NCBI RefSeq assembly: GCF_018336915.1
Contig: NZ_CP064923.1
Location: 5,490,001 to 5,522,000 of the forward strand
Length of the DNA: 32,000 nucleotides
Source of the DNA: Acaryochloris marina S15
GTDB taxonomy: Bacteria > Cyanobacteriota > Cyanobacteriia > Thermosynechococcales > Thermosynechococcaceae
Reading direction: 5' to 3'
The translations under genes and the position numbers were made by a program. Of the stretch, positions 1 through 29,774 are shown one piece after another. The notes under the pieces are model-generated. The model had not been told where the DNA came from, made no database searches, and saw only the letters and a list, made by a program, of their open reading frames with translations. Positions within the stretch are counted from its first letter, which is position 1, and every line of letters begins with the position of its first letter.

Positions 1-434
1 GCATGGGTTTCAGCCGCCCGTTCACTAATTACCCAGACAATTCCCATAATGGTGACAGCAATCCCACCCCAGGCAAACGGAGAGAGCTGCTCCCGCAAAA
101 ACCACAGGGCCAGACAGGCCGATATGGGAGGCGCTAGGGTGCCTAATAACAGCGTCCGCCGGGCCCCCAGATACCGTAATGCTTCCAGATACACCGTATC
201 GCCAAACCCAATGCCAATGGCCCCACTCAAGAGCAACAACAGGCTGCTTCTTCCAGCCAACGCTGGAGCATCGAGACCCTGAACAACAATGGTGATTCCC
301 AGTAGGGCAATCGCGATCACCCCTTTACCTAGATTCAAGGCTAAGGCAGGGGCTCGACGGCCTAAGGTCGCATAAATCATCGAAGCCACGGCCCACAGGA
401 ACGCCGCACTAACAGCCGCGATTTCTCCAATCAT
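1..434 (-). CDS. EamA/DMT-family transporter, N-terminal part (gene continues past the left edge)
   Basis: Absent from the ORF track because it is open at the window edge. I hand-translated the minus strand from ATG (complement of 432-434): MIGEIAAVSAAFLWAVASMIYATLGRRAPALALNLGKGVIAIALLGITIVVQGLD... There is no stop down to position 3. The consecutive hydrophobic helices and the FLWA-type start are typical of EamA domains. The listed + ORF 49-282 is its antisense shadow. Confidence 0.75.
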   Translation of the reverse strand, partial: MIGEIAAVSAAFLWAVASMIYATLGRRAPALALNLGKGVIAIALLGITIVVQGLDAPALAGRSSLLLLLSGAIGIGFGDTVYLEALRYLGARRTLLLGTLAPPISACLALWFLREQLSPFAWGGIAVTIMGIVWVISERAAETH

Positions 435-599
435 GGTATCTGGTGATGACTCATCAGGGATGTCGAAGTAGCTAGTGTTGGCATTCCAAGTATTTTTGAC
501 CTTTAAATTGGGAAGACTGGCAAATATTATGCTCTTGCGGATCTATTTTGGAAAGACAAGGGCTTAGGCTTAACAATGGTATGTCCTGGGGAGTAATTT

Positions 600-2363
600 G
601 TGGCAATACACCTTCGTAACTGGCTGGCGGATCATCTAGAGATCAGTCCTCGCCGTAAAGCAGAAATCTATCACAGCCTCCTCGATTCAGTCAGTTTAGG
701 GGATATCAGTTACTGGCTGCAGGTGCTTTTCTCGGCAGGCATTGCCACTCTCGGATTGGTCTTAAATAGTCCAGCCGTCATTATTGGTGCCATGCTCATT
801 TCTCCTTTGATGGGAGGCATTTTGGCCAATGGCTTAGCCTTTGCTGTGGGTGATTTGGTCTTAGGCACCCGGGCTATCGTGAATTTAGCAGTGAGCTGTC
901 TGGCTGCCATTGTCTTTGCCATCCTGATTATTGCCCCTATTCCTTTTAAAGAACTCACCCCTGAAATTGCGGCCCGGACACAGCCGAATGCCCTAGATCT
1001 ATTTATTGCCTTGTTCTCTGGGGCTTTAGGGTCGATTGCCACAGCCAAAGAGCCTAAGGGCGTGGTTACATCCATTCCCGGAGTAGCGATCGCTGTGGCC
1101 CTGATGCCACCCCTTTGTGTGGTCGGCTACGGTATTGGTATCCGTCTCAGCTCTGATGTGGTAGGCATTGGGGGCTTTCAAGTGGCCCGTGGGGGAGGGT
1201 TATTATTCTTAACTAATCTAGCCGCCATCACCTTAATGTCCATGTTGGTGTTTTTGGCCCTCAATATCGGCATGCCCGAAGTCAAATCCCAGGCCGTCGA
1301 ATGGCATGAACAGGATCCCGAAAGCCGATGGGTCAAAAATTTACTGACGCGTCTGCCGGTTACCAATCAGCTCCAGAAAATTGGCAGTTTACCCAGCCGA
1401 CTCGCGGTAATTTTACTCCCCATCCTGGTGTTACTGGTTCCTCTCAGTCAATCTTTTTCGCGATTACAGACACAGTTAGCTCAGAAACAGGAAGATAACG
1501 CCCTGCGCCGACTAGCCACCACGATCTGGCAAGGTAATTTTGCCAATACGGCCACTGGAGAACCTCGGTCCTACATTAGCCAGTTGAATACAACTGCCAT
1601 CGAGGATAAGCTAACGGTGCAGTTAACGGTATTTACCAGCGAACCGTATACTCTCGACGAGCGGCAGCGGTTCAGAGAGACCCTGGCCCGCCAATTAAAC
1701 CGACCGGCCAATTCTCTGGATATCCAGTTGATTGAGATTTTAACGGCTTCCAATGAGCTGCTAGCTCGGCTCTCCGATGACCCGGTGGTGACAGAACCTA
1801 TCACCCCAGAAGCTTCACCCATCAGCGTCTCCCAGGCTCAGGTTAATTTACTGCAAACGGTTGATACTGCCTTGGGAACGATGGTACTTCCCGCTCCTGC
1901 TCTCCCCCTCCGTCACGAAGTCAGCACGAGTGCGATTGCCCCCCTCACTCTAAAAATTTTCTATCTCAGCAATCGTGACATTGGGGGTGATGCCCAAACA
2001 TTACTGCGAGAAGACCTGCGCAATCGACTCCAGTCGCCGATGACTCAGGTCATTTTGGAGCGAGTACCGACGTTCCCCACCCCCTTAACTTTTGAATTAG
2101 ACCTGTCAGCCATTTCTCCCGAGAGTCAACAAACGTTGAATCAGGTGGGCACGATTCTGCAACAGCAGCCTAATTTGTCGGTGGATATTGTGGCTCGGGC
2201 CGAAACCTTAGAAAATCCCGTGATGAACAGTAATCGGATCAAAGCAGTCCAAACGTTTTTGACCCAAACTTGGCGCATCGATCAACAGCGCATCAACAGC
2301 CGATCAGGTCCTGAGTTGGAGCGGGGAGAACAGCCTACTATTCTGCTCAAAATTAACATGTAG
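600..2363 (+). CDS. DUF389-family integral membrane protein with a long soluble C-terminal extension
   Basis: 587-aa ORF with a GTG start. The N-terminal half (YWLQVLFSAGIATLGLVLNSPAVIIGAMLISPLMGGI...) matches the DUF389/TIGR00341-type hydrophobic domain as I remember it. The C-terminal ~300 aa are hydrophilic with internally similar modules. Confidence 0.75.
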   Translation: MAIHLRNWLADHLEISPRRKAEIYHSLLDSVSLGDISYWLQVLFSAGIATLGLVLNSPAVIIGAMLISPLMGGILANGLAFAVGDLVLGTRAIVNLAVSCLAAIVFAILIIAPIPFKELTPEIAARTQPNALDLFIALFSGALGSIATAKEPKGVVTSIPGVAIAVALMPPLCVVGYGIGIRLSSDVVGIGGFQVARGGGLLFLTNLAAITLMSMLVFLALNIGMPEVKSQAVEWHEQDPESRWVKNLLTRLPVTNQLQKIGSLPSRLAVILLPILVLLVPLSQSFSRLQTQLAQKQEDNALRRLATTIWQGNFANTATGEPRSYISQLNTTAIEDKLTVQLTVFTSEPYTLDERQRFRETLARQLNRPANSLDIQLIEILTASNELLARLSDDPVVTEPITPEASPISVSQAQVNLLQTVDTALGTMVLPAPALPLRHEVSTSAIAPLTLKIFYLSNRDIGGDAQTLLREDLRNRLQSPMTQVILERVPTFPTPLTFELDLSAISPESQQTLNQVGTILQQQPNLSVDIVARAETLENPVMNSNRIKAVQTFLTQTWRIDQQRINSRSGPELERGEQPTILLKINM

Positions 2364-2607
2364 TCCTGGTTAGCCAATCGTCAGACAGCCGTCGTAGGGG
2401 ACTTTATCAGAGCTTCCATAACGCGTTGAAGACTGGAATCAAGGCGTCTTAAAATCCTAAGCATTCACCAAAAAAGACGGTATAGTTGGGAAATTATCAA
2501 TATCTCAACTAAATGACTCTATATTCAATTCTATCTAGCCGTGGCTCATATTTTCTCTAGCTGATGAAATTAATAGCTATTATTCGGGAATGATAAGACT
2601 AGAGATG

Positions 2608-2623
2608 CGTGATCAAGATCACA
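2608..2623. promoter_or_regulatory. CRP/NtcA-family-like palindrome CGTGA-N6-TCACA
   Basis: cGTGATCAAGATCACA matches the TGTGA-N6-TCACA consensus at 9 of 10 half-site positions. It lies in an AT-rich intergenic region ~130 nt upstream of the small ORF at 2757. Confidence 0.3.
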
Positions 2624-2756
2624 GGTGCAAACGGCTATAGTCACTGCTAGCAAAGGCTGTAACTAACATGCTGGATAGCAAACCTGTACACCGGTTCCGC
2701 AGAGATTGTCACAGTTGGGTGTCGATCCTAAATCACACCGTAGGGAGAAACAAGCC

Positions 2757-2945
2757 ATGTCTGTGGTTCTAGCAGAACGATTTGCACATAATCCAGATTG
2801 GTCCAAAGTTCAGCCGCATAATTGCGATCGCGCCCAAGAATTGGTGACTTTAATCCAGGCTCAAATTCATCAGGACCGCGAAGCCCTGGCCGATGACTAC
2901 TACGGTTGGATTTACGAACTAAACAAGTTATTAAGTAGCCTGTAA
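2757..2945 (+). CDS. small hypothetical protein (62 aa from the ATG; the track ORF starts at TTG 2706)
   Basis: ATG 2757 is preceded by GGGAGA. The sequence MSVVLAERFAHNPDWSKVQPHNCDRAQELVTLIQ... has no recognisable motif. Confidence 0.35.
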   Translation: MSVVLAERFAHNPDWSKVQPHNCDRAQELVTLIQAQIHQDREALADDYYGWIYELNKLLSSL

Positions 2946-3022
2946 ACTCTCTTCTTGCTCTGCGAGTCACATCCAGGTCATATACGAGTAACGTTAGAGT
3001 GAGATGACATGTCAGTTAAGAT

Positions 3023-3361
3023 TTGTCAACAATCCAGATCACAACGACCCAAAAAACTTGGAAGCCCCAAACCTTCCAACCGATGACAGATGTTGCAGGT
3101 ATGGGATCTGCGATCGCAACCGACCAACACCACACCTATTTTTTGCACTACACGTCAGGGCTTTCCATTCTAGAACCTGGACAAGCAAACCCTACTTTCA
3201 TTGATCTGTCAGCGTTGAGCTATATGCGAGATCTCCTGATTGACCAGAAGGGCAATCTTTGGGTAGGAGGATGGAAGCAGTTAGTTCGACTACGCTGCCA
3301 AGGAAATCAGTGGAGTCAAGACCATTATCGCCTCACTCATTCAGTCTTAATCTCTCCTTAA
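3023..3361 (+). CDS. hypothetical protein, start uncertain (TTG 3023 or ATG 3083)
   Basis: Longest ORF in this stretch. The segment DQKGNLWVGGWKQLVRL resembles a single beta-propeller (Reg_prop-like) repeat. No other support. Confidence 0.3.
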   Translation: MSTIQITTTQKTWKPQTFQPMTDVAGMGSAIATDQHHTYFLHYTSGLSILEPGQANPTFIDLSALSYMRDLLIDQKGNLWVGGWKQLVRLRCQGNQWSQDHYRLTHSVLISP

Positions 3362-3510
3362 GTCAGTTAATTCATACCTGTTAAGACTTGTGCTTTCTAA
3401 GGTTCATTTTTTTGTATCCACCAATACAACAATCAACCGATAGACTTGATATTTCTTGTATACATACTCTATTCATCAAAAAACAATAATTCCTTAAAAA
3501 ATACTTGTTT

Positions 3511-3636
3511 CTAGGGTTCCGATTTGAGTTCCGTCCTTACTTAAATGCCTGGTCCAAGAGAAACAGCTAGCTGCTTTCATACCTGTTTTATACCGGTTGG
3601 CAGTGAGTGACACGGAGGGATAAAAGCCCGGGAGAA
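3511..3636 (+). promoter_or_regulatory. guanidine-I riboswitch aptamer (ykkC-yxkD motif, subtype 1)
   Basis: The three conserved ykkC blocks are present in the right order and spacing: CTAGGGTTCCG (3511-3521), GGTCCAAGAG (3551-3560) and ACACGGAGGGATAAAAGCCCGGGAGA (3610-3635). It sits in the 5' leader of the operon that starts at 3787. Confidence 0.9.
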
Positions 3637-3688
3637 TGAACATTAACGCCGTATCCGTTAATGGTTGTCTCCGCGGGTTTTGTGTTTT
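3626..3688 (+). terminator. riboswitch expression platform: intrinsic terminator overlapping the aptamer 3' strand
   Basis: GCCCGGGAGA (3626-3635) pairs with TCTCCGCGGG (3668-3677), with one bulged G. The inner stem is ATTAACG (3642-3648) / CGTTAAT (3656-3662). The U-rich tract TTTTGTGTTTT (3678-3688) follows. Confidence 0.7.
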
Positions 3689-3786
3689 AAATGGACAGGG
3701 CTCATCTTCCTCTAAAATGACGAAGGAGAAACAACATCAATAAAGAAATTAGCTTGACGAAGTAAAAAACACATTTTCTCGATATT

Positions 3787-4983
3787 ATGGCTGAAAATCC
3801 GACCTTTGGTCCTCCAAACTCTAATCCTGATTTTTCTTCCACCGAGGCCAATCGTGCCTTAGAAAAAGAAGCACAACTCCCCCTCACAGGCTGGCAACAA
3901 GAAGTCGATCGAGGATTAGAACTGGGCTTAGAAGCAGCAGCTAGCATCCGGGATCGCAGCATTCCTACCTTCTCACGAGGAGAACTGCCCCACTATGCAG
4001 GTATCAACACCTTTCTCAAAGCGCCTTACCTAGAAGATGTGCGTAAAGTCGGTGAGTACGATATTGCTGTTGTGGGCGTTCCCCATGACTCAGGCACCAC
4101 CTATCGTCCCGGCACACGCTTCGGTCCTCAGGGCATTCGTCGGATTTCAGCCCTCTATACCCCCTACAATTTCGAGATGGGCATCGATTTGCGGGAGCAG
4201 ATTACCCTCTGTGACGTGGGCGATATCTTCACTATCCCCGCCAACAACGAAAAATCCTTTGACCAAATCTCTAAAGGAATAGCCCATATCTTCAGTTCTG
4301 GGGCTTTTCCCATTATTTTAGGAGGTGATCACTCCATTGGATTCCCCACCGTTCGCGGCGTCTGCCGCCATTTGGGAGATAAGAAAGTCGGTATCATCCA
4401 CTTCGATCGCCATGTGGATACCCAAGAAACCGACCTAGATGAGCGCATGCATACCTGTCCTTGGTTTCATGCCACCAACATGGATAACGCTCCCGCTAAA
4501 AACCTGGTACAGCTAGGCATCGGTGGTTGGCAAGTGCCTCGCCAAGGGGTCAAGGTCTGCCGAGAGCGAGCCACTAATATCTTGACCGTCACTGACATTA
4601 CCGAAATGGGTCTAGATGCTGCCGTTGACTTCGCCCTAGAAAGAGCCTTGGACGGCACAGACTGTGTGTATATCAGTTTCGACATTGACTGTATTGATGC
4701 CGGATTTGTCCCCGGTACCGGCTGGCCAGAACCCGGTGGTCTCATGCCCCGAGAAGCGCTCTATATGCTCGGTAAAATCATTCGACAAGCGCCCGTCTGT
4801 GGCCTGGAAATTGTCGAAGTTTCGCCCCCCTATGACGTCAGCGATATGACCTCTCTGATGGCCACGCGGGTGATCTGCGATACCATGGCCCATCTGGTTC
4901 TCTCTGGACAACTGCCCCGTCAGCAAACACCCGACTATATTCACCCTGAAGCCAATATGGCAGTGGGTTCTGAGTGGGTTTAG
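3787..4983 (+). CDS. gdmH: arginase/agmatinase-family ureohydrolase; probable Ni-dependent guanidine hydrolase (GdmH/Sll1077-like). Pipelines would usually call it agmatinase SpeB.
   Basis: 398 aa. All arginase-fold metal-ligand motifs are present: ILGGDHSIGFP, IIHFDRHVDTQ and YISFDIDCIDAGFVPGTGWPEPGG. It is the first gene after a guanidine-I riboswitch and is followed directly by HypA/HypB-like genes. Confidence 0.85.
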   Translation: MAENPTFGPPNSNPDFSSTEANRALEKEAQLPLTGWQQEVDRGLELGLEAAASIRDRSIPTFSRGELPHYAGINTFLKAPYLEDVRKVGEYDIAVVGVPHDSGTTYRPGTRFGPQGIRRISALYTPYNFEMGIDLREQITLCDVGDIFTIPANNEKSFDQISKGIAHIFSSGAFPIILGGDHSIGFPTVRGVCRHLGDKKVGIIHFDRHVDTQETDLDERMHTCPWFHATNMDNAPAKNLVQLGIGGWQVPRQGVKVCRERATNILTVTDITEMGLDAAVDFALERALDGTDCVYISFDIDCIDAGFVPGTGWPEPGGLMPREALYMLGKIIRQAPVCGLEIVEVSPPYDVSDMTSLMATRVICDTMAHLVLSGQLPRQQTPDYIHPEANMAVGSEWV

Positions 4984-4986
4984 GCC

Positions 4987-5367
4987 ATGCATGAAACAGA
5001 CATGACCAAGGCCCTGATCATGACGGTCAAAGATTGGTACGACTCCCAACCCGAAGATCCAAAAATCACCAAAATTCATTTGGTTGTCGGTCGGTTTACC
5101 TGTGTTGAACCCGTCAGCTTGCAGTTCGCCTATGAAGTTCAAACCCGTGACACTTTCTTAGCCGGGACAGAACTGGTGATTCGAGAAACGCCTTTAATCG
5201 CCTTTTGTCACCCCTGCCAAAAAGAATATTCCCCAGCCATCGGCTTGCAGTATTCCTGTCCTGACTGTGGAACGCCGATGGAAGACATCCGGTCCGGTCG
5301 CGAACTCAAAATTGACCATATCGAATATTGTTCTGATTCAGCCCAAGCTTATGCACCAAACTGTTGA
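4987..5367 (+). CDS. hypA: HypA-like nickel metallochaperone (GhaA-type accessory protein)
   Basis: 126 aa. Has the N-terminal MHE nickel-binding motif and two CxxC pairs (CHPCQ, CPDCG) forming the zinc site. The ATG is 3 nt after the upstream stop codon. Confidence 0.85.
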
Positions 5368-6049
5368 CGCCGCCCTAGGCATTAACCTCTTACATGCCAA
5401 TCAAGAAGGGGCCAATCACAACCAAGCACATTTTGATGAATGGGGGGTGACCTGTTTCAACATTATGAGCAGCCCTGGTGCAGGAAAAACGGTGCTGTTG
5501 GAGAAAACCCTAGCGGCTCTCAGCCCAGAACTCAAACTGGCCGTCATCGAAGGCGACATGACCACCGAATTGGATGCCGATCGATTACGGGCTTACGATG
5601 TCCCCGTGGTGGCCATTAACACCGGGCGATCCTGTCACCTTGACGCCAAGATGGTCGCGGGTGGCATCCACCAATTGGAGCATTGCACTAATCCTAGTGA
5701 ACTGGATTTAGTGCTGGTAGAGAATGTCGGGAACCTCGTATGTCCGGCAGAGTTTGAAGTAGGAGAGCATGCCAAAGTGGCCCTACTCAGCGTGACAGAG
5801 GGGGAAGATAAGCCGCTGAAATATCCCGTGATGTTTCAAGCAGCCGATTGTTTATTGGTGACCAAGATAGATTTAGTTCCCTATCTCAATATTGACATTG
5901 AGCAAATCAGCCAGAATGTCCGTCAGCTCAATCCCCATGCCACGATTATTCCGGTATCTGCACAAACAGGAGCAGGGCTTGCTGAATGGTATGAATGGGT
6001 GCGTCAACAGGTCGCCCAGCCGAGTCGGACTGCAGTCGGTCGTCATTAG
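5351..6049 (+). CDS. hypB: HypB-like nickel-dependent GTPase (GhaB-type accessory protein)
   Basis: P-loop SSPGAGKT, metal/switch motifs GRSCHLDA and [12 protein letters not shown], and specificity motif TKIDL. I place the start at ATG 5351 ([10 protein letters not shown]...), which overlaps hypA by 17 nt. The track start at 5267 would add 28 residues read out of frame across hypA. Confidence 0.85.
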
Positions 6050-6076
6050 TTGTTTGTAAGCAGGTAAAAGACTTCT

Positions 6077-7105
6077 ATGAAGCGAAGAAATTTTCTATCC
6101 TTATGTTTGGTATTTTTCTGCAGTTTGCTGCTGACCGTCAGCTGTAGCTCCTCACCCGAGACGACAACCGACTCTTCTGTCGGCTCAGGGGAGCCAGTTG
6201 TGATTGGTTACAGTAACTGGGCGGGTTGGTGGCCTTGGGCCATTGCCGAGCAAGAAGGGCTATTTGAAAAAAATAAGGCCAATATCAAACTCAAATGGTT
6301 TGATAATTACACCACTTCAATGGAAGCCCTGGCAGCGGGTCAATTAGACGGCAATTGCCAAACCCTCAACGATACGATTTCCTTTGCCGGCAGTGCCACC
6401 AAGGGAGAAGTCGCGGTCCTAGTCAATGACAACTCTGCTGGTAATGACAAGATTATCGTTACGGCCGATATTAATAGTATTCAAGACTTGAAAGGTAAGA
6501 AAGTTGCCGTTGAAGAAGGAGTAGTGGACGACTTTTTGTTGACCTTAGCCTTGGAAGAAAACGGCATGAAGCGAGACGATGTGGAGATCGTGGGCTTGGA
6601 AACGGGTAAGGCCGTGACTGCTTTTGTGGCAGGTAAAGTGGATGCAGTCGGGGCATTTCCCCCGTTCTGGGCAACAGCGTTAAAGCGGGAAGGCAGTAAA
6701 GAGCTGATCTCGTCCAAAGAGTTTCCGGGTGCCATTCCAGACTTGCTCGTGGTGACCCAAGATTTAGTGGATAATCGCCCCGATCAAGTGCAGGCCCTGG
6801 TAGATACTTGGTTTGATATCTTAGCCTTCATAGATAAAAATCCCCAAAAGGCTGATGAAATTATGGCGAAGCGGGCCGGGGTCTCTCTGGAAGAGATGAA
6901 GCAATTCAAAGAAGGAACGCGCTTCTTCTCCCTAGAAGATAATCTGGAAGCATTTTCGGATGGTGAAGACATGAAGCATATGCCCTTTGCTGCCAAACGG
7001 ATGGCTAAGTTTATGGTGGATGTCGAATTCATTAAAGAAGCACCGGATTTAACCCAAGTGCTGGATGACCAGTTTGTTAAGGCCTATCAAGCCAAGCAAG
7101 CATAG
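6077..7105 (+). CDS. ABC transporter substrate-binding protein, NitT/TauT (NMT1/SsuA-like) family, probable lipoprotein
   Basis: 342 aa. Signal peptide ends in LLLTVSC-SS (lipobox-like Cys). The overall pattern (IGYSNWAGWWPW..., KGKKVAV..G) is typical of nitrate/sulfonate/taurine-type binding proteins. Confidence 0.8.
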   Translation: MKRRNFLSLCLVFFCSLLLTVSCSSSPETTTDSSVGSGEPVVIGYSNWAGWWPWAIAEQEGLFEKNKANIKLKWFDNYTTSMEALAAGQLDGNCQTLNDTISFAGSATKGEVAVLVNDNSAGNDKIIVTADINSIQDLKGKKVAVEEGVVDDFLLTLALEENGMKRDDVEIVGLETGKAVTAFVAGKVDAVGAFPPFWATALKREGSKELISSKEFPGAIPDLLVVTQDLVDNRPDQVQALVDTWFDILAFIDKNPQKADEIMAKRAGVSLEEMKQFKEGTRFFSLEDNLEAFSDGEDMKHMPFAAKRMAKFMVDVEFIKEAPDLTQVLDDQFVKAYQAKQA

Positions 7106-7173
7106 TTCCCTTCTATTCCTGGAGCTAGTTCGCTCCAGGAATACCAGATTAGTCATGTGTCTCTGCAGCGATT

Positions 7174-8019
7174 ATGACCTCCAACTCGTCAGTTCCCCCA
7201 CCCCAACCGAACCATCAGTCTGGTGGATTAAAACCCACTATTTTTTGGCGTATTGCTGAGGACATTCCAGGGAATCTCAAGTGGGCCTTAATGGTGACTT
7301 CCATCGTTCTTCCCTTCGGACTTTGGTGGGGAATCGCTAGCACTGGAGTCGTTAATTCCGACTTCTTGCCATCTCCTACCCAAGTGGGTCAAGCCTTACG
7401 CGATCTCTACTCTGATGGCTTGCTCGTCCATGATACGTTGATGAGCTGCTTTAGGGTTGGGGTAGGTTTTCTACTCGCTGCAATTGTTTCTGCGCCTGTT
7501 GGCATAGCGATGGGGACATTTACCAGTATTCGGTCCTTATTGGAACCGATTATGGGCATTGTTCGTTATATGCCAGCGCCCGCCTTTACGCCCCTGTTAC
7601 TGATCTATTTAGGGGTAGATGAACGACCCAAAATCGCCCTCATTTTTATCGGTACGGTGTTTTTCAACATCTTGATGGTGATGGATGCCGTCAAGTTTAT
7701 TCCCAAGGAATTGCTGGAAACAACTTATACCCTAGGGGGAAGACGTCACCAAGTGCTCTTCCAGGTGATTACTCCCTATGTGATTCCCAATATTCTGGAT
7801 GCCTTTCGTGTCAATATGGCAGCCTCTTGGAATTTAGTCGTGGTTGCTGAATTAATTGCTGCAGAAGAAGGCTTAGGGAAACGCATTGCCATAGCTGAAC
7901 AGTTTTTCAGGACTGATACTATTTTTGCCTGCCTCATTGTGTTGGGACTGATTGGGTTTGGTCTAGATTTATTATTCCGCTGGCTACAACGTGCTGTCTC
8001 TCCCTGGGCAATCGACTAA
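7174..8019 (+). CDS. ABC transporter permease, NitT/TauT family
   Basis: 281 aa and multi-pass hydrophobic. The EAA-like loop region (AEEGLGKRIAIAEQFF) is typical of BPD_transp_1 permeases. Confidence 0.85.
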   Translation: MTSNSSVPPPQPNHQSGGLKPTIFWRIAEDIPGNLKWALMVTSIVLPFGLWWGIASTGVVNSDFLPSPTQVGQALRDLYSDGLLVHDTLMSCFRVGVGFLLAAIVSAPVGIAMGTFTSIRSLLEPIMGIVRYMPAPAFTPLLLIYLGVDERPKIALIFIGTVFFNILMVMDAVKFIPKELLETTYTLGGRRHQVLFQVITPYVIPNILDAFRVNMAASWNLVVVAELIAAEEGLGKRIAIAEQFFRTDTIFACLIVLGLIGFGLDLLFRWLQRAVSPWAID

Positions 8020-8028
8020 CTCATCACT

Positions 8029-8805
8029 ATGCACTTAGAAGTTTCCCATCTGTATAAGCATTTCTCGACTCGCCAGGGGAAACTGCTCGTTCTCAAAGAT
8101 ATTAATCTGCACGTGGAGACGGGAGAGTTTGTCTGTGCTGTAGGGGCATCAGGATCTGGCAAAACCACACTTCTACGTATGATAGCGGGGCTAGACGCCT
8201 CTACCTCAGGCAAAATCATGGTCGATGGTCAGCCCGTGATTGGTCCGGGTGCCGATCGCGGCATGGTGTTTCAAAGTTACACCCTCTATCCCTGGTTGAC
8301 AGTTGCCAAAAATGTGGGATTTGGCTTAAAACTGCAGGGGGTTGCTAAGCCCCTGCGCGCTAAGCGGGTGGCTGAATATCTAGATGTGGTGGGATTGACC
8401 CAGTTTGCCGATGCTTATCCCAGAGAGTTGTCAGGGGGGATGAAGCAGCGAGTTGCCATTGCCCGAGCATTGGCCTCACAACCCAAAGTATTACTGATGG
8501 ATGAGCCGTTCGGAGCATTGGATGTGCAAACGAAAGAAACCATGCAGCAGTTTTTGCTGAATTTATGGCGACGAACCGGCACCAGCATCTTAATGATTAC
8601 CCATGACGTAGACGAAGCTATTTTCCTGTCACAGCGCATTTACGTGCTCACGGCTCGCCCTGGTTCGGTCCAGCGAGAGATCTCGATTAACCTACCGACG
8701 GAACGGACTTACGCCGTCAAACGTCAGCCCTTATTTCAAGACTATCGAGATGAAATCATGGATCTGTTGCGGGAAACCCCAGAACTCCATCCAGTGATAG
8801 AGTAA
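8029..8805 (+). CDS. ABC transporter ATP-binding protein, NitT/TauT family
   Basis: Walker A GASGSGKTT, signature LSGGMKQR, Walker B LLMDEPF, H-loop ITHD. The ATG is 9 nt after the permease stop. Confidence 0.9.
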   Translation: MHLEVSHLYKHFSTRQGKLLVLKDINLHVETGEFVCAVGASGSGKTTLLRMIAGLDASTSGKIMVDGQPVIGPGADRGMVFQSYTLYPWLTVAKNVGFGLKLQGVAKPLRAKRVAEYLDVVGLTQFADAYPRELSGGMKQRVAIARALASQPKVLLMDEPFGALDVQTKETMQQFLLNLWRRTGTSILMITHDVDEAIFLSQRIYVLTARPGSVQREISINLPTERTYAVKRQPLFQDYRDEIMDLLRETPELHPVIE

Positions 8806-8812
8806 GGCTCAA

Positions 8813-9343
8813 CTATCCAGGTTGCCGCTCTAGGGTGGCTTCCATCGTATTGAGAAGATAATGCTCGCTCATCATGCCGCTCGATAAACGATAGCTATTA
8901 TCGGCAATGCGATGAATCGTTTCAAAACCACTACGGCGATCGCGATCGCCTAATACCCAAAACCGCTGGACAATAGATTCGGGACCAATCCAGCCTTCCC
9001 CTTCTACTTGGCCCAATTGGCTATGTTTGAGGACGTAAGTATACCGCTGGTCGTTACTGCCTAAACGTCCCCGATACTGCATGATAATTTCTGAGGTACC
9101 TTGACGGGCCACCGCCGACTCTTCAGGAAACAAAAGCTTGGTCGCCATGGTAAACCAGCTATCACAGTTCCATGCCACCAGGGTGCGGCCATGGATGGCA
9201 ACGGGATCTTGGTTACGTTCCATCCAAGTCCCTTTGAAAGTCCATCGGCCCGCATCTAATAAGAAGGTGTGAGCCGCAGCGCCTTTTTTCTCTGGCATTT
9301 CGTTAATGTAGGTGAATCTTTGTCCTTCTCTTAGGATGCCCAT
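8813..9343 (-). CDS. hypothetical protein (176 aa), no motif recognised
   Basis: Clean ORF 17 nt downstream of anmK on the same strand. Soluble-looking composition. The alternative-frame ORFs here are shorter. Confidence 0.6.
   Translation of the reverse strand: MGILREGQRFTYINEMPEKKGAAAHTFLLDAGRWTFKGTWMERNQDPVAIHGRTLVAWNCDSWFTMATKLLFPEESAVARQGTSEIIMQYRGRLGSNDQRYTYVLKHSQLGQVEGEGWIGPESIVQRFWVLGDRDRRSGFETIHRIADNSYRLSSGMMSEHYLLNTMEATLERQPG
8936..8949. repeat. tandem overlapping HIP1 octamers (GCGATCGCGATCGC)
   Basis: Two overlapping copies of the cyanobacterial highly iterated palindrome GCGATCGC. Single copies recur throughout the window. Confidence 0.9.
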
Positions 9344-9360
9344 TGGGTCAATCGTCTGGA

Positions 9361-10500
9361 TCAGACGAGGTGTAATTCTCCCAAGAGAACAGGGCCTTTT
9401 GCCCCGGTCACTGTGGGGACATTACCAGGGATTTTCAGCTGCCGCCAATAGGCCAATACCGCAAATGCGATCGCTTCTTTGGCATCAGCACTCAACCCTA
9501 AATCATCCGCTGTCAGCACGGGGCTACTCCCCACACGCTGTTGCAGGCACTGCCGTAAATACCCATTACGACTACCGCCCCCACACAGAACCACCTGATC
9601 AGGCGGATGGGGCAAAAACTGGTCGTAGTTGTAAACGATGGTTGCTGCCGTAAAGTCCGTCAGGGTAGCGAGCATATCGGCTGGACTGAGCTGATAGAGT
9701 GCCGCTGTTTGTAAACAGGTCTGCAAATAATCGGGGCTAAACAACTCTCGCCCCGTAGATTTAGGAGGTGGCTCTAGGAAAAAAGGATGCCGCAGCCATT
9801 CCTCAATCAGGGGCTGACAAGGCGTCCCCTGGGCAGCCCAGGCCCCATCGGCATCGTAGGTCAGTTCTCCTTTAGAAAAGTGAGCAACAGCCAAATCCAT
9901 CAAAACATTGGCAGGGCCTGTGTCCCAGCCTTTGACACCGACCCCCAGTTGGTTCCCATCCGCTAAGGGGGGCAGATAGGTAACGTTGCCAATACCGCCC
10001 ACATTTTGCACACAGCGGTAGAACTCGGGATGGCTGAGTAAACAAATATCCAGTTTGGAGACGAGGGGAGCGCCCTGACCGCCTGCTGCCATATCAGCGA
10101 CGCGAAAATTACTGACCGTATTGATGCTGGTTTGATAGGCAATCACAGCTCCCCGCCCCAATTGGAGGGTATAGCCCAGATTGTCTTGCGGGGGACGATG
10201 GAACACGGTTTGGCCGTGGGACCCAATCAGTTCGGCGGTCGGCGTTGCATCTGCCTGAATGGCTTGGGCCGCTTGAGAAAATTGAGTTGCGATCCCATCA
10301 TCCAGTACTGCCACCTCTTCGATACTCAAAGGCTGTCCCGCGCAAACCGCTAGAATTTGATCTCGGAGGGCATCGGGATAGGGATAGGTCTGGGACGCAA
10401 TCAGATCGACCTGTAAGTCTAGTTCCTGGCCGGAAATATCAACGAGGGCGGCATCAATGCCATCAACGGAGGTACCGCTCATCAAACCAATTACACGCAT
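9361..10500 (-). CDS. anmK: anhydro-N-acetylmuramic acid kinase
   Basis: 379 aa. The N-terminus [22 protein letters not shown] and overall length are characteristic of AnmK. The start is 2 nt downstream of the kinase gene stop. Confidence 0.9.
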
Positions 10501-10502
10501 GC

Positions 10503-12938
10503 TTACCCTTCTCCCAAAGAACGTAGAACACTGAGAACGTCGTTGTAACTCCCCGTTCGGCCTTGTGCAGCATAGAGATCGGCTGCTTTTTTTAGATCCG
10601 CAATGGCTTCCTTGCGTTTGTTTTGCACCGAATAAAGCAAGCCCCGTTTATAGTAATCTTCAGCCGCATCTGGCTTAATTCGCAGGGCATCACTGAGATC
10701 GCTTAAAGCCCCATCTAAATCTTTGAGCTGGATCTTGGCACTGGCACGGTTAGAGTAAGCCGCTTGACTCCGCACCTCACTGTTGCGAGTGTCATTAATT
10801 TTGATCGTGCGCCCATAGTCTTGGATCGCCTTTTCATACTGCTTTAATCGCAGATAAATATTGCCCCGCACCGTATGTAGGGCAGCACTGCTGGGGTTAA
10901 TCCCTAAGCCTTTGTTGCAGTCTTCGAGGGCGCGCTGTAGTTCATTGAGGGAAAATAAGGCCCCACAACGATTATTGAGGACAAAGGGATCTTTAGGATT
11001 AATGGCAATGGCGCGATCATAATCTTTGAGTGCACCTTCAAAATCCGCTGGCTGACCTTGGTAGGCACGCAGTTCACCCCTCAGCAAATAGGCGTTGGTA
11101 GAGTTGGGATTAATCTTTAGAGCCTGATCAAAGGATTTACGAGCTTGCTCGATTTCACCCTGTTCATAGAAGACACCTCCCAGATTGGTATGGGCACGGG
11201 TGAGCTGAGGGTTAATGCTCAGAGCCTGATTGTAATCTGCGATCGCATCTTGTTTTTGATTCAACCTAGAGTTGGCATAGCCCCGACTCGTATAGTCTTT
11301 CGCCGTTCGTACTGACAGTTCTAGGGCGCGTTCCCAGTCTTGTTCTGCTCCATCTTGGTCCCCCAGAACCGAACGATAGCTACCTCGGTTCACATGGGCT
11401 GATAAATGATTGGCATCCGCTTGGATAGCCTTATCTAGTTCTTTGACCGCCGCTTCCAGCTTCCCCTGGACAAAAAATACAGAGCCTAAATTGAGATAGC
11501 CTTGGGCCTGGTTGGGTTGGAGACGAATGGCTTGACGATAATCGGCAATGGCCTCCTCATACTTACCCATTTCTACCTGGGCATCTCCCCGATGGTTATA
11601 AGTTTCCGCATCCTTGGAGTCGAGAGAAAGGGCTTCGTTATAGTCTGCGATCGCAGTTTGGTATTCCCCAGTGGCAAAGTGAATTTCGCCTCGTTCTCGA
11701 TAGGCCGCTGCGGTTTCTGGCTGCTGCTCTAACAAGGTATCGAACTGGGCGATGGCGTCCGGGTATTTTCCAATCTCACCATAGGTTTCGCCTAATTTAA
11801 GCGCTGCTTCGGTGTAATCATCTTTTAGCGCTAAGGCCTGTTCAAAATTCTCCGTGGCAGACCGCCAGTTCCCCGATTGGGCCGCCTGCTGACCCCAGAA
11901 ATAATGCCATTGGGGACGGAAGAGAAAAAAGAGACTTGTGGATGCGATCGCAACGCCACCCACCCCTAACCCAATCCACTTCAACCGCCGTTTAGGCTGC
12001 TGGGTCTGGAGCGCAGGCTCAGCCGGAGAGGGCTCAGGGACTGCTGGCGGAGGTGAAGGGGCTGCAGGAGCAACTTCATCTTCAGCCGAGGGATGGGAGA
12101 GCACCGTGCTGGCTTGAGCCACAGACTGTAATGCCGTTCGCATAGCTGCCACCGTGGCAAACCGATGTTTCGGATGGGGTTTAACCAGTTGATCCAGCAA
12201 ACTTCTAAAGGGGGAGCTCAGATGCTGGCAATCCTGCTTCCACAGCAATCGTCCCGTCGCACTATCCGTTTCAAACTGATCGGGGAACTTGCCCGTCAGC
12301 AAATAAATCGCCGTTAAACCCAAACTATATAGATCGCTGGCAAACGTAGGTCGCCCCGCTGCCTGCTCTCTGGGCATAAAGCCAAGGGTGCCAATTACAA
12401 TCGAGCGACTGGGCTGTCCTTGAGCATTGATTTGGGTAGCCATCACTTCCTTGACGGCACCAAAATCAATCAGACAAGGCTGTTGATCAGCATTACGAAC
12501 AATAATATTGTCGGGTTTAATATCTCGGTGAATAATGTTGTGGCCATGAATGTAATTGAGCACATTGATAATCTGATAAAGCAGCTTGATCACCTCTGCT
12601 TCATTCAGTGAGCCTTGGGCGGTGACAATTTCCGTGAGGGTCTGGCCTTCAATCCATTCCTGCACCAAATTAAATTGCCCAGTTTCTTCAAAGTAAGCAA
12701 ATAGATCGGGAATTTGAGGATGCCCTTGGCCAATTCGTTCTAAGATGGCCGCTTCTCGCTGAAATCGTTCTAAAACAATTTTCTGCACCCGATCATTGTT
12801 AAGCACAGGTTTGAGCTGTTTAATCACACAAAATCGCCGAGATGGCATTTGCTCATCTTCAGCTAAGAAGGTTTTACCGAATCCCCCTTCATTTAATGCC
12901 TTGAGGATACGATATCGGCCATTAACAAGTCCTACCAT
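10503..12938 (-). CDS. membrane-anchored Ser/Thr protein kinase with C-terminal TPR repeats
   Basis: Hanks kinase motifs: [32 protein letters not shown]. These are followed by a Pro-rich linker, one TM segment ([20 protein letters not shown]) and ~12 TPR-like repeats. Confidence 0.9.
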
Positions 12939-12991
12939 TTATTCTGTGATGTGCTGTATTCGCCTGAACAAGCGAGATAAACCCTTTACCC

Positions 12992-13876
12992 TCATGCCGA
13001 TAGGGTAACCTGCATTCGCTTCTGTTGCCGTAAATAGCCATGCAAGATTTCAGCATCCATACCGTGGAGCATCAGCCGAAAGCCAGCATGCAGCGTAATT
13101 AACGGAATACAGGGATGACGATTGTTGACTAAGCTCAAGGCCGTCGGATCTTGTAACAACTTGCTAATGTAAATGGCGATGGTTTCATCTAGCTGCAACG
13201 AATTGGTGGCCCGCCAAAAATCATGATCGGATAAAAACAAAGCATAGACTGGTGTATACGCCTCAATGGCAGATTGCAAATCCACAAAATTAGTCCATCG
13301 TTGGCATCCAGGATTGATCTCAAATTCTCCATCCGTAATCGCGTCAAAGTTGAGGCTTTGAGGGGCCTCTAGCGTCCGATTCTCAGCCTTGAGCTTTTGA
13401 TTCAACTCAATAATAAAGTTGTAAATATTCAAATCGTGAATCAGGAAGGTATTGGCCTTCAAATCTTCTAAGCAGGTGGGGCGCAAGGATTGGGTAGACG
13501 TAATCTCGACCCCAGCATTATCGGCAATAAACTTGAGAATCTCCGTCCCAATCACGAAATGCCGCAAAATCAGATAATTACTATCGGGGGTCACAAAGTA
13601 CTTCAACCCCCAATAAATAAGCTGATGCAGCAGCCGAGACGAGCTTAACCATTCGGGGATCACGATTCGTAGTAGCTTCACCACCACAATCATCAGCTTG
13701 GCCAACGGGCGCACAAAGGGCAAAAAGATCCGGCGGGAGCGGCTGTTGTGGCCCCTCAGCAATGCCCGCTTAGATTCATCGTGAAGGGGCAAACTGGCAT
13801 CCAAATAGAGCGCCAGCCAAGGATTGGGGTCTTTGATATTAATGATTTGTTGATCAAACTCTGTCTGCCAACTCAT
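12992..13876 (-). CDS. hypothetical protein (294 aa from the ATG), third gene of the KAS III / HDO operon
   Basis: ATG at 13876 shares its A with the upstream TGA (TGATG). The track start at 13879 is a TTG one codon earlier. I recognise no catalytic motif. There is one hydrophobic stretch (FLPFVRPLAKLMIVVVKLLRIVIP). Confidence 0.65.
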   Translation of the reverse strand: MSWQTEFDQQIINIKDPNPWLALYLDASLPLHDESKRALLRGHNSRSRRIFLPFVRPLAKLMIVVVKLLRIVIPEWLSSSRLLHQLIYWGLKYFVTPDSNYLILRHFVIGTEILKFIADNAGVEITSTQSLRPTCLEDLKANTFLIHDLNIYNFIIELNQKLKAENRTLEAPQSLNFDAITDGEFEINPGCQRWTNFVDLQSAIEAYTPVYALFLSDHDFWRATNSLQLDETIAIYISKLLQDPTALSLVNNRHPCIPLITLHAGFRLMLHGMDAEILHGYLRQQKRMQVTLSA

Positions 13877-14577
13877 CAATAATGTCCTAGTTCTTCTAGC
13901 TGTAAGAGATATAACCGAGCGGTAACTTTGGCGGTGCGGACAATCGCCTCATCCATTCCTGTTATATCCAAAATTGAGCTAGCCAGCAGATCTTCGAGTT
14001 CTTGCAGATGATCTTCATCATGGGCTGCATGATAGCGATAGAACTCTAGCTGATCTGGATCGGTGATTAAGGGGTTTTCGTCTAAGGCATTGGCAAAGGT
14101 TTGGGCGAACCGCTTTCCTAAGCCCTCGATCACAAACATGGCCCCCAACAGATCGAAGGGGTTGGGCTGAGATGCCCGTTGATACATCCAGGCTGAAAGC
14201 GCTTCGGACCCAATATTTTTGTGCGCCCCTATCAATTCGGCTTTTTGGCCCCCGGAGGCTAGATAACTTTTCTCCAGCATTTGATAGTCAAGATGTTCTG
14301 TGGCCGCATGGCGGATAAAGACAGAACGCTGGTCCAGATATGGCGCTGTAATCGAAGAGGCTGCTCGGCTAATCCAGCCGCTGCCTTCCACCACCTGCTG
14401 GTAATGATCGCTAATTAAGGTGAGATAATCTGCTAGCCTGAGCTGCTGCTGCATTGCTCGGGCGACAATCGGTACTTTTAACAACCGACTTTCAAAATCG
14501 GCCCATACCATCGTTAACTGGCGCAGCACTCGCTGGGACTGGGTGACGTTGCTGTGAAGTCGAGGTTGGGTTTGCAT
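13876..14577 (-). CDS. heme-oxygenase-like fold, iron-containing redox enzyme family protein (HDO/Haem_oxygenase_2-like)
   Basis: 233 aa and predicted all-helical. Candidate metal ligands are RHAATEH, VIEGLG and HAAHDEDH (H-x3-D-x2-H, as in CADD/UndA-type diiron enzymes). The start is 4 nt after the KAS III stop. Confidence 0.65.
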   Translation of the reverse strand: MQTQPRLHSNVTQSQRVLRQLTMVWADFESRLLKVPIVARAMQQQLRLADYLTLISDHYQQVVEGSGWISRAASSITAPYLDQRSVFIRHAATEHLDYQMLEKSYLASGGQKAELIGAHKNIGSEALSAWMYQRASQPNPFDLLGAMFVIEGLGKRFAQTFANALDENPLITDPDQLEFYRYHAAHDEDHLQELEDLLASSILDITGMDEAIVRTAKVTARLYLLQLEELGHY

Positions 14578-14581
14578 GAAA

Positions 14582-15706
14582 TTACACCACTGTTAAATGC
14601 ATAAAGGCCGCAATACAGCGCCCACTTTCGGGTACAAAGCAGAGGATCCGTTGTCCAGGCTGCAAAGACTGTTGCTGAACCAGCTCCTCTAGCATGATAA
14701 AGATGGAGGCCGTCCCGGTATTGCCATAGCGTTCTAGGTTATTGAACCATTTTTCTTCCGCAATCATGGCTCCTGTGCGAAGCAGCAATCGCTTCATCTC
14801 TTCGCCTAGGGAGTGGGAAGAATAATGGGGTAAAAAATAATCGATGGCATTGGGATCCAGATCGTATTTCTCTAGCAGCTCCAGATAGTAGCCAACCCAA
14901 ACCGGAAACATGGCGTAGAGAATATCAAAGTCTTGCTTAAGGGCAATGGCACCCGCTTCATAGGCCGCCTGGGGAGATTCATATAACCCCCATCCCAGAT
15001 CGTCCGTATTGCTTTTAGCCCCGGCATACATACAGGGTGGGAACCGGTCGGCAAAGGACTTAAACTGAATCCAATCAATCCGCAAGGACACTCCATCGGG
15101 CTTAGGATTGGGCTCTAAGACTACAGCTCCTGCCCCATCGGAGAGGGTCCATCGCAAGAACTCGATTTGTGGATCGGGCCTGGCATCTTGATCGTAAAAA
15201 GGCTGATAGACCTTAGGGCGAAACCAGCGGCTCGCAAATTCACTCCCGCTCGCGACTGCCAGCTGAGACTCGCTCACTTTGACATTGAGCCAGGCATTTT
15301 TAACCGCCATCAGACTGCTGGCACAAACACTCTGAAATGAAAAAATTGCTAGCGGTGGAATACCTAGCTCACCATGGACTGCACTCGCAAACCCTGGCAC
15401 CAGATAATCCCCTTGGGTGGTACTCGTTGCTAGCAGATCCACCTGTTCGGGCTGGCAACGAGCTTGTTTAAGAGCATCATGAATGGCATTCGCCGCCATC
15501 CCTGCGTTGGTATATCGGTAGCCACCTGCTGTATCTAGGGCGTAGAAGCGCTGCTTAATCCCATTTTTGCGCAAGATAGCGGATCCTAGGGTTGAGCTAC
15601 GCTTACTAATACTGCCGATGTACGCCGCCATATCCGCGTTGGCAACGGGCTCTCCTGGCAAAAATTTGCCGACTCCAGTGATGTAAACCTCTTGGCAAGG
15701 AGACAT
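14582..15706 (-). CDS. beta-ketoacyl-ACP synthase III (FabH)-like condensing enzyme
   Basis: Thiolase-fold KAS III pattern with a candidate Cys-His-Asn triad: FQSVCASS, FLPHYSSH, YGNTGTASI. I prefer ATG 15706 (MSPCQEVYITG...) over the track TTG at 15712. Confidence 0.85.
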   Translation of the reverse strand: MSPCQEVYITGVGKFLPGEPVANADMAAYIGSISKRSSTLGSAILRKNGIKQRFYALDTAGGYRYTNAGMAANAIHDALKQARCQPEQVDLLATSTTQGDYLVPGFASAVHGELGIPPLAIFSFQSVCASSLMAVKNAWLNVKVSESQLAVASGSEFASRWFRPKVYQPFYDQDARPDPQIEFLRWTLSDGAGAVVLEPNPKPDGVSLRIDWIQFKSFADRFPPCMYAGAKSNTDDLGWGLYESPQAAYEAGAIALKQDFDILYAMFPVWVGYYLELLEKYDLDPNAIDYFLPHYSSHSLGEEMKRLLLRTGAMIAEEKWFNNLERYGNTGTASIFIMLEELVQQQSLQPGQRILCFVPESGRCIAAFMHLTVV

Positions 15707-15714
15707 GGGCAACG

Positions 15715-15741
15715 CTGACTCAGGAGTCAGTCACAGGTGAC
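15715..15741. promoter_or_regulatory. two abutting palindromes directly upstream of the KAS III-like start codon
   Basis: CTGACTC-AG-GAGTCAG (15715-15730) is followed immediately by GTCAC-AG-GTGAC (15730-15741). Function unknown. Confidence 0.25.
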
Positions 15742-16266
15742 CGGTTCATCGTCGATGCGTTCGCAGCATCTACAGCTGAATCATAGCGCTTCTCTGGTTG
15801 ACTATAAGCCAAAGAATTGAATACATTGGCTCTAGACCTTGCATGTGCCTGAGAGCAGTAAACTAAAGATATTAAGACATTGCCTCTACCAGACTTTAGG
15901 CAAGTCATTGGTACTACTCGCTACATTTATGACCTCATGGGCTGTTGTATTGTCAAAAGATGGTGAAATACAGTCAATCGGCTAATTTCTCTAGCAAACG
16001 GTCAAATCCATACTTGTTAACAGATTTACCGATTAAAGCCTATAAGTTTTAGATCAAAATGGGCACACTACAGTCATCGGTGTTGATGGAGATTTGATAT
16101 CCAGGCTATTTGCAGCAATTGTCTGTCTTAGTCGTGTCCCAGCATACAGTGAATAGCAAGTTTAGCTTGCGATCTCAGCGGTCGGGGGAGCCTGCATTGA
16201 GTTGCAGTAGGCCATCGCTTTTTTCAGCAATAGAGTCACGTCCTCTTTCGAGATGTAAGTTTTGCA

Positions 16267-18857: not shown

Positions 18858-20051
18858 TTAGTCCGGTAAGTCATATTGACTGACAATGCGCTTGGCGTAT
18901 TCAGGCACATGGGCATCTACCTTATCAGGATAGTTACGCTTCACATACAGGTAGTTACGGGTAAAGTGCGAATCAATCGAGAACCGCGCATATTCTAAAC
19001 CTCGGGGACCAATCTTGTCGATCACCACCCCCATCAGTTTCGCCGCCCACATGGGCAAGGTCACCCCCTTATCATAGGCAGGGATGCTGTTTTGCACCGC
19101 CGCATGGCGATCGCCTTCAGAAATTACAGGCTGGGTTTCCAGCTGATCCATCACCAGATCCAGCATTTCCTGGCCCGTCTCGTTGCGCACCACAATCCAC
19201 TGCCAGCCGTAGGGAGAACCCATATAACCCACCACAAGATCCGCCAGGGAATTCGTGTAGTCAAAACAGCTCATGCAGGAAGGGGCAAAAATGTCTTTGA
19301 GTTTATTGGTCTTCAAACCAAAAAAGGGCACCATCTCAATCGACCCATCTTCATGCTTGAAGTGGATACGGAAGTCCTGCATAAATTCATAATGGACAAC
19401 CGTTTCTGGGGAACGACTCGTGGTGTCTAAGAAGGTCTGCAACCCTGCTCGATTCACGTTGTCTACGCAGGGCGTCCCCAGCACATAGAGTTTCTCAAGC
19501 CCTAAGCTATCCTGAACCGACCGTAAAGCTTGGGTTTGGCACCCTACTCCAATCACACAGAGGCGCTTCATGCCCGACTGTTCAATCTGCTCTAGCACCG
19601 AGAGATTGGGAGATAGCGTGGGCTTATTCACCCGAGCCGCCAACACTTCTTCTGGGGTACGGGCAATAATCGGCTTGGGTTGAAATCGATCTTCATCCGT
19701 ATTTTGGATACAGACAACGCCCTCAACTTTGCCCTGCTTCAGCAGTTCCATGCCGATGGTGCTGACAATCCCCGTCCATTGCGCCCCCGGAATGGGATCG
19801 ACCTTGCGGGCCGTCATCATTTGGTTGCTGACCCCGAAGTACCAATCATCTTCGTTATCCAAGTCACGGCTGCGGCCATGGGCTTTTTCTTCCAGCTCAG
19901 CCACCTGCTGATTTAAGAAGGCACAGGCTTCCTTAACGTAGTGAATGTAGTAGGTATCGCAAAGACCACATTCACTACAGAGTTCTTTAGCCGGTCGGCG
20001 ACTCGTGGATTTGAGGGCTTTGGCTTTTTTATGGGGTTGTACCGCAGTCAT
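18858..20051 (-). CDS. coenzyme F420 hydrogenase/dehydrogenase beta-subunit family Fe-S flavoprotein (HCAR / BciB-like chlorophyll-intermediate reductase)
   Basis: 397 aa. The N-terminal Cys cluster CSECGLCDTYYIHYVKEAC and the overall FrhB_FdhB N+C architecture resemble plant 7-hydroxymethyl chlorophyll a reductase and cyanobacterial ferredoxin-type divinyl reductase. Confidence 0.8.
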   Translation of the reverse strand: MTAVQPHKKAKALKSTSRRPAKELCSECGLCDTYYIHYVKEACAFLNQQVAELEEKAHGRSRDLDNEDDWYFGVSNQMMTARKVDPIPGAQWTGIVSTIGMELLKQGKVEGVVCIQNTDEDRFQPKPIIARTPEEVLAARVNKPTLSPNLSVLEQIEQSGMKRLCVIGVGCQTQALRSVQDSLGLEKLYVLGTPCVDNVNRAGLQTFLDTTSRSPETVVHYEFMQDFRIHFKHEDGSIEMVPFFGLKTNKLKDIFAPSCMSCFDYTNSLADLVVGYMGSPYGWQWIVVRNETGQEMLDLVMDQLETQPVISEGDRHAAVQNSIPAYDKGVTLPMWAAKLMGVVIDKIGPRGLEYARFSIDSHFTRNYLYVKRNYPDKVDAHVPEYAKRIVSQYDLPD

Positions 20052-20190
20052 AGTTAAATTAGGGTTTCAGTACTCCGAAGCAAGCGCAAAGTACCGAATT
20101 GAATGGTTATCTCGCATTCCGATTGTAAACAGTTTCGGGACCGCACCCCAAGTCCCCCCAGTTTTTCCTTTGATGACTGATTTTTAGAGG

Positions 20191-29510: not shown

Positions 29511-29774
29511 CTTCAGTCAATTGAGAGTAATTAGCTTTAACATAAATGAACACTGAGTCTATGAACAGACTGCTAAATCAATGCCTAAAGAAAAATGCAC
29601 TTTAAATAGACTTTTCTGGGCATCCTAGAGATCAAGAACCAATTCGTTCTACCTCAAGGGGGAAACCTAGCAATAGGTTATGAGGTTGTCGATATCAATG
29701 CAGAAACTTAAAAAGAAGGCGCTGCTGTTACCAGCCTTTTTACAACTCTCAATAGACTTGAGTACGACTTGGTT

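Follow-up and report, generated by a model that had tools for sequence, protein, structure and literature searches.

The window analysed here, 32,000 nucleotides (nt) from Acaryochloris marina S15 (contig NZ_CP064923.1, positions 5,490,001 to 5,522,000), carries six plus-strand genes behind a Guanidine-I riboswitch, and I am confident that this locus is orthologous to the guanidine-assimilation module gdmH-ghaA-ghaB-gimA-gimB-gimC of Synechocystis. The same six genes occur in the same order and orientation in Synechocystis PCC 6803 (sll1077-sll1082), and the two loci also share an 87.5% identical GdmH with the same metal motifs, a Guanidine-I aptamer in the 5' untranslated region (UTR), an upstream NtcA box and the binding residues of GimA. 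They differ in that the host here is a chlorophyll d cyanobacterium, and in that a second NtcA promoter before gimA is not demonstrable in the window. The sequence-level parts of this assignment are observed directly, whereas the biochemical activities are predictions carried over from the 87.5%-identical system. An initial annotation of this DNA had described a complete set of sensor, importer, metallochaperones and enzyme, and all of these parts are indeed found, but the system is already published and the locus is an ordinary orthologue rather than a discovery: the enzyme, its nickel dependence, its chaperones, the GimABC importer, the riboswitch and NtcA control were established by Wang 2021, Funck 2022 and Itzenhauser 2025.

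The first gene, gdmH (3787-4983, +), encodes a predicted Ni-dependent guanidine hydrolase of 398 amino acids (aa) with an arginase fold (PF00491, 261.6 bits). Its product matches PDB 7ESR/7OI1, the Synechocystis 'probable agmatinase 2' that is Sll1077, with 801 bits and 87.5% identity over 384 residues, and the identity reaches 92% within the catalytic core (residues 60-370). A further PDB entry, 9FEK, scores 589 bits, and the next characterised ureohydrolases come only at 167 bits (proclavaminate amidinohydrolase), 161 bits (guanidinobutyrase) and 120-133 bits (agmatinases). The arginase-family metal-ligand motifs picked out in the initial annotation are all present and are the same as in 7ESR, namely GGDHS at residue 179, HFDRHVD at 205 and SFDIDCID at 297. 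Sll1077 breaks down guanidine to urea and ammonium and favours guanidine over agmatine (PMC8390497), and Funck 2022, as cited in PMC12704784 and PMC11399263, describes it as Ni2+-dependent and activated by the adjacent HypA/HypB-type proteins GhaA and GhaB. What the initial annotation had said of Sll1077, a Ni2+-dependent guanidine hydrolase that needs GhaA and GhaB, agrees with these sources. By transfer across 87.5% identity to the characterised enzyme, A. marina GdmH is predicted to hydrolyse guanidine in a Ni2+-dependent manner.

The two genes behind gdmH are HypA-like and HypB-like, as initially proposed, and both pass the corresponding family models. GhaA (4987-5367, +; 126 aa) is a HypA-type nickel metallochaperone (PF01155, 102.9 bits; TIGR00100, 112.3 bits against a cut-off of 88.1) with the motifs MHE, CHPC and CPDC, and GhaB (5351-6049, +; 232 aa) is a HypB-type nickel GTPase (TIGR00073, 310.7 bits against a cut-off of 121.2; cobW in Pfam) that carries TKID. 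The ghaB start was taken as the ATG at 5351, although the mechanical open reading frame (ORF) opens at a GTG at 5267. The six genes, all on the plus strand, are joined by a 3-nt gap, a 17-nt overlap and then gaps of 27, 68 and 9 nt, just as the initial annotation gave them, and the chosen starts reproduce the deposited protein lengths exactly (398, 126, 232, 342, 281 and 258 aa). A scan of one genome per prokaryotic species gave more than 575 GdmH-encoding stretches, the best 80 of which were kept as loci. Of these 80, 78 have ghaA as a same-strand neighbour of gdmH, 57 have a linked gimA-like gene, and the gdmH-gha-gim architecture recurs in most of these cyanobacterial loci. The module has been described as widespread in cyanobacteria (PMC12704784).

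A HypA/HypB pair might be expected to serve a hydrogenase or urease nearby, and this explanation was rejected, as the window has neither. When all its other sizeable ORFs were scanned with Pfam, the two truncated by the window ends among them, no structural gene for a NiFe hydrogenase or a urease turned up, in agreement with the initial annotation. The sole caveat is a label that could mislead: the ORF at 18858-20051 (-), beside a Rieske/PaO oxygenase, belongs with FrhB/FdhB, a family titled 'F420 hydrogenase beta subunit'. Its cyanobacterial members are usually 7-hydroxymethyl-chlorophyll a reductase-like and not Ni enzymes.

The last three genes form the NitT/TauT-type ATP-binding cassette (ABC) importer that had been recognised from the sequence: gimA (6077-7105, +; 342 aa) encodes the binding protein (TIGR01728 SsuA_fam, 281.5 bits; NMT1), gimB (7174-8019, +; 281 aa) the permease (PF00528, BPD_transp_1) and gimC (8029-8805, +; 258 aa) the ATPase (PF00005, ABC_tran). 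GimB is nearest to the TauC, SaoP and SsuC models and GimC to the SaoA, TauB and NrtD models, in each case under their cut-offs, and a PDB sequence search with GimA returned only distant taurine, sulfonate and nitrate binders at no more than 46 bits. The Synechocystis counterpart, sll1080-1082, which the initial annotation had correctly named as an ABC transporter, is known from the literature as the gimABC guanidine importer. Its GimA binds guanidine with a dissociation constant (KD) of ~97 nM, and gimA and gimB mutants cannot use 0.1 mM guanidine. The published guanidine-pocket residues of Sll1080 are W59, W62, D135, F205 and D233, and the window GimA has W48, W51, D124, F194 and D222 at a constant offset of 11. 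Across 55 gdmH-linked homologues four of these residues are invariant and the position of F194 holds F or W. From the Synechocystis KD and mutant phenotypes, GimABC in A. marina is predicted to take up guanidine with high affinity.

The whole window was scanned with the Rfam covariance models, and RF00442, the Guanidine-I (ykkC subtype 1) riboswitch aptamer, is the sole match above its gathering score in the 32 kb. It lies upstream of gdmH at 3500-3636 (+), scores 71.4 bits (gathering score 63; E = 5.3e-11) and covers model positions 1-107 of 107, so the riboswitch call made initially from three ykkC blocks holds up under the covariance model. The blocks themselves sit exactly where they had been placed, CTAGGGTTCCG at 3511-3521, GGTCCAAGAG at 3551-3560 and ACACGGAGGGATAAAAGCCCGGGAGA at 3610-3635. 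All three consensus blocks of the ligand pocket (CUAGGGUUCCG, GGUCCxAGAG and ACGGxGGGAxAAAAGCCCGGGAG) are found in the aptamer and are invariant across three Acaryochloris genomes, that is, the window and two others. The aptamer is kept in Acaryochloris with differences only within stem-loops; relative to the Rfam consensus, the window aptamer has stem-loop insertions of 10 nt and 27 nt. A strict aptamer regular expression is matched in 53 of the 80 related loci, a figure that is a lower bound for the presence of RF00442, and of seven regex-negative loci rechecked with the covariance model four scored 79-84 bits; RF00442 is therefore present in at least 53 loci and in four of the seven rechecked.

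Downstream, the aptamer runs into an intrinsic terminator that would serve as its expression platform (3623-3688, +), consisting of a hairpin at 3623-3681 followed by a U-run. The 5' arm AAAGCCCGGGAGA (from 3623) is the 3' strand of the aptamer itself, the 3' arm TCTCCGCGGGTTT extends to 3681, and the U-run TTTTGTGTTTT comes next. The hairpin has a folding energy of -28.3 kcal/mol (z = -3.78), none of 200 shuffled sequences was equally stable, and it recurs in the minimum free energy fold of the whole leader. In a set of 54 leaders, made up of the 53 regex-positive related loci and the window, a fold-based test found the aptamer 3' strand paired in a downstream hairpin in 53 and a T-rich tail in 46. 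Given this structure and the behaviour of characterised Guanidine-I switches, the leader is probably a standard terminator-type ON switch in which the guanidine-bound aptamer would hold the shared strand. The orthologous RF00442 leader upstream of gdmH in Synechocystis binds guanidine with a Kd of ~58 uM and raises expression 4-5 fold in vivo. Just past the terminator, the 5' UTR contains a pyrimidine-rich block, CTCATCTTCCTCTAAAATG (3701-3719), which is invariant in the three Acaryochloris genomes and whose core TCTTCCTC is absent from the other 51 leaders examined. A short ORF that opens at the ATG of this block differs in sequence and length in A. marina MBIC11017.

Nitrogen control would be added upstream of the riboswitch. 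An NtcA-type box, GTATCCACCAATAC (GTA-N8-TAC; 3414-3427, +), lies 73 nt upstream of the aptamer, and is one of only two perfect GTA-N8-TAC matches in the 32 kb, the other being at 15911-15924. Its pattern GTATC....AATAC is retained in the two other Acaryochloris genomes, and 35 of the 53 regex-positive related loci have a GTA-N8-TAC box no more than 200 nt upstream of the aptamer. A putative -10 hexamer, GATATT (3448-3453, +), can be read 20 nt past the box, and the block CTTGATAT that holds it is invariant in the three Acaryochloris genomes. From these elements transcription would start near 3460, placing the centre of the NtcA box near -41 as in Synechocystis. Relative to that predicted start, the region upstream of gdmH has the layout of an NtcA promoter, with GTA-N8-TAC near -41.5 and a -10 element ~20-23 nt downstream. 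NtcA binds upstream of gdmH in Synechocystis (PMC12704784), and the box in the window suggests matching control in A. marina.

Taken together, these parts suggest how the module would work. Transcription would start about 40 nt upstream of the aptamer, at the NtcA-box promoter, in response to nitrogen limitation. Without guanidine, the aptamer 3' strand GCCCGGGAGA would pair with TCTCCGCGGG to form the terminator, and the transcript would end near 3688; with guanidine bound, the aptamer would keep that strand, no terminator would form and RNA polymerase would enter the genes. GimABC would then bring in trace guanidine with high affinity, GhaA and GhaB would supply Ni2+ to the dinuclear site of GdmH, the arginase-fold enzyme, and GdmH would split guanidine into urea and ammonium, a reaction that would serve both nitrogen assimilation and detoxification.

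Nothing found contradicts reading the locus as a complete and riboswitch-controlled guanidine pathway in A. marina, but some points limit it. I found no literature that links Acaryochloris to guanidine, and the activities there are predictions; the GimA pocket residues were mapped through a constant numbering offset and not through an alignment to Sll1080 itself; and, as the window has no urease, what becomes of the urea cannot be read from the 32 kb. Nor is it certain, on the analogy with Synechocystis, that the riboswitch governs all six genes, because gimABC there has an independent NtcA promoter. The candidate for a matching element in the window, the box GTATCTGCACAAAC (GTA-N8-AAC) at 5954-5967, lies inside ghaB about 120 nt before the gimA start and has a TATGAA 22 nt downstream, but it falls within the codons for the conserved HypB motif 'PVSAQTG', and the two nearest relatives, L001 and L002, have GTG...AAC at this site. 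Since the coding motif is constrained and the GTA is not kept in these two loci, the box is uninformative.

This bears on how the locus is wired. The initial description of a riboswitch driving a six-gene operon stands insofar as the aptamer and terminator do precede the gene string; it is a simplification in that NtcA control is involved too and that gimABC has its own promoter in Synechocystis. An alternative that I consider possible, though less likely, is that the riboswitch and NtcA promoter serve gdmH-ghaA-ghaB only and that gimABC is transcribed mainly from a nitrogen-regulated promoter in the 3' end of ghaB, an arrangement that would free expression of the importer from the need for guanidine. 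Synechocystis indeed has two transcriptional units, with a validated NtcA-dependent promoter (TU794) before gimA (PMC12704784), and the internal box with its TATGAA would be the candidate counterpart. However, besides the constraint on the box, the -10 candidate degrades to TTTGAG in the nearest relatives, and a candidate internal box is found within 260 nt of gimA in just 16 of 57 related loci, about twice the 0.13 per locus that I would roughly expect by chance. The ghaB-gimA gap of only 27 nt shows no terminator-like site, so that read-through from the riboswitch-controlled promoter into gimABC is plausible under either arrangement. Furthermore, in one related locus (L003) the order is riboswitch-gimABC-gdmH-ghaAB with RF00442 directly upstream of gimA, which shows that in this family the importer can come under the control of guanidine. 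At the other extreme, the Acaryochloris importer may lack a promoter of its own and all six genes may form one transcript gated by NtcA and the riboswitch, with CTCATCTTCCTCTAAAATG as a possible lineage-specific element of the 5' UTR; I regard this combination as improbable. If true, a single transcript would create positive feedback, with imported guanidine inducing its own high-affinity importer.

Two other explanations concern what the genes do. The deposited annotation could simply be correct, in which case the locus would comprise a SpeB2 agmatinase of arginine/polyamine catabolism, two hydrogenase maturation factors and a sulfonate, taurine or nitrate importer. The public names (agmatinase family, HypA, HypB) fit this, both chaperones score above the HypA and HypB equivalog cut-offs, and GimA clears the subfamily model SsuA_fam. 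Nevertheless, I give this explanation almost no credence. GdmH fails both NCBIfam agmatinase models (TIGR01230, 168.6 against 174.3 bits; NF002564, 206.8 against 302), is a close relative of an enzyme that prefers guanidine over agmatine, and is encoded under a guanidine-specific riboswitch; the lack of a NiFe hydrogenase in the window speaks against hydrogenase maturation; and the importer has permease and ATPase subunits well under the respective equivalog cut-offs, as well as a binding protein whose orthologue binds guanidine at ~97 nM through residues kept in the window. It is also conceivable, if rather unlikely, that the module mainly detoxifies endogenous guanidine and that the importer recaptures what leaks out. 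In Synechocystis, GdmH is needed for guanidine tolerance and stabilises guanidine-producing strains (PMC8390497). The NtcA box and the high-affinity importer point instead to nitrogen scavenging, and the Synechocystis module supports growth when guanidine is the only source of nitrogen (PMC12704784). The detoxifying and nutritional roles are not exclusive of each other.

Other known systems resemble this one only in part. The metformin/dimethylguanidine hydrolases MefH/MetCaCb (8RYI, 8SNF), to which the window GdmH is homologous at 135-145 bits, far below its match to Sll1077, are likewise arginase-fold Ni2+ enzymes that need co-encoded HypA/HypB (PMC11399263), but they are heteromeric two-subunit enzymes, act on substituted guanidines and lack the riboswitch context. 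The guanidine carboxylase pathway is also switched by Guanidine-I riboswitches and often accompanied by NitT/TauT ABC transporters (PMC8390497), but works through an ATP-dependent carboxylation, after which carboxyguanidine deiminase and allophanate hydrolase act. The ORF scans of the window found no gene for the carboxylase, the deiminase or the allophanate hydrolase. Within the genus, the A. marina MBIC11017 chromosome (L001; NC_009925.1, 2.866-2.887 Mb) is collinear with window positions 1-14947 at 82-84% DNA identity and shares the leader elements. Its GdmH (97%), GhaA (94%) and GhaB (93%) are close to those of the window, but the transporter is more diverged (GimA 78%, GimB 66%, GimC 79%). 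This level of DNA identity, together with the diverged transporter genes, places the window in a distinct Acaryochloris lineage.

The value of this assignment is mainly in annotation. The six proteins are identical to deposited A. marina QUY42393.1-QUY42398.1, yet their names mask a full guanidine-assimilation pathway: GdmH (QUY42393.1/WP_212663562.1) is deposited as 'agmatinase family protein', and the others as 'hydrogenase maturation nickel metallochaperone HypA', 'hydrogenase nickel incorporation protein HypB' (QUY42395.1, which has the length of GhaB) and generic 'ABC transporter'. The initial annotation had foreseen that homology alone would mislabel this locus, and these names confirm it. 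The 90%-identity cluster that includes the window GdmH has 2360 members, and the named members that I looked at are all called 'agmatinase' or 'agmatinase family protein'. Corrected names would predict that the chlorophyll d cyanobacterium Acaryochloris scavenges guanidine as a nitrogen source. The locus opens no new question, since all of its components have been demonstrated in Synechocystis and are reported to be widespread in cyanobacteria.

A few observations on the related loci and on the surroundings of the module may be recorded separately. Two loci (L019 and L025) come from metagenome-assembled genomes titled 'Sphingobacterium thalpophilum' and 'Candidatus Gracilibacteria' and carry cyanobacterial-type gdmH loci (GdmH 87-89% identical); the most likely reason for these titles is an error in binning or labelling, not horizontal transfer. 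The Nostoc mirabile locus (L056) has no RF00442 match at the gathering threshold, and contains a match to NsiR1, a nitrogen stress-induced small RNA, at 1987-2042 (+), which scores 43.3 bits (gathering score 39) and lies some 8 kb upstream of gdmH. In the window, a 112-aa ORF without a Pfam match lies just upstream of the promoter region (3023-3361, +), and a convergent 176-aa ORF, also without a Pfam match, has its stop ending 7 nt past the gimC stop (8813-9343, -). The interval between gimC and this convergent ORF showed no terminator-like site.

Farther away, the second perfect GTA-N8-TAC box (15911-15924) lies about 200 nt upstream of a minus-strand trio (12992-15924) encoding a DUF6999 protein, a Haem_oxygenas_2 'iron-containing redox enzyme' and a KAS III-like condensing enzyme, which may be a small nitrogen-regulated biosynthetic operon. 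At 22136-23395 (+) there is an IS605-family OrfB/TnpB of 419 aa (HTH_OrfB_IS605, OrfB_IS605 and a Cas12f1-like TNB domain), with an antisense shadow ORF of 401 aa that has no family match; no adjoining TnpA was seen among the scanned ORFs. The two genes cut by the window ends encode an EamA-family transporter (3-542, -) and an FHA-GAF-GGDEF-EAL signalling protein of more than 763 aa (29712-32000, +). Finally, at 18858-21729 (-), the FrhB/FdhB-family protein already mentioned (397 aa) is encoded directly downstream of an oxygenase with a Rieske [2Fe-2S] and a PaO domain (512 aa). No chlorophyll d synthase is known for A. marina so far, and these two neighbours form a pair of chlorophyll-metabolism type in an organism that has chlorophyll d.

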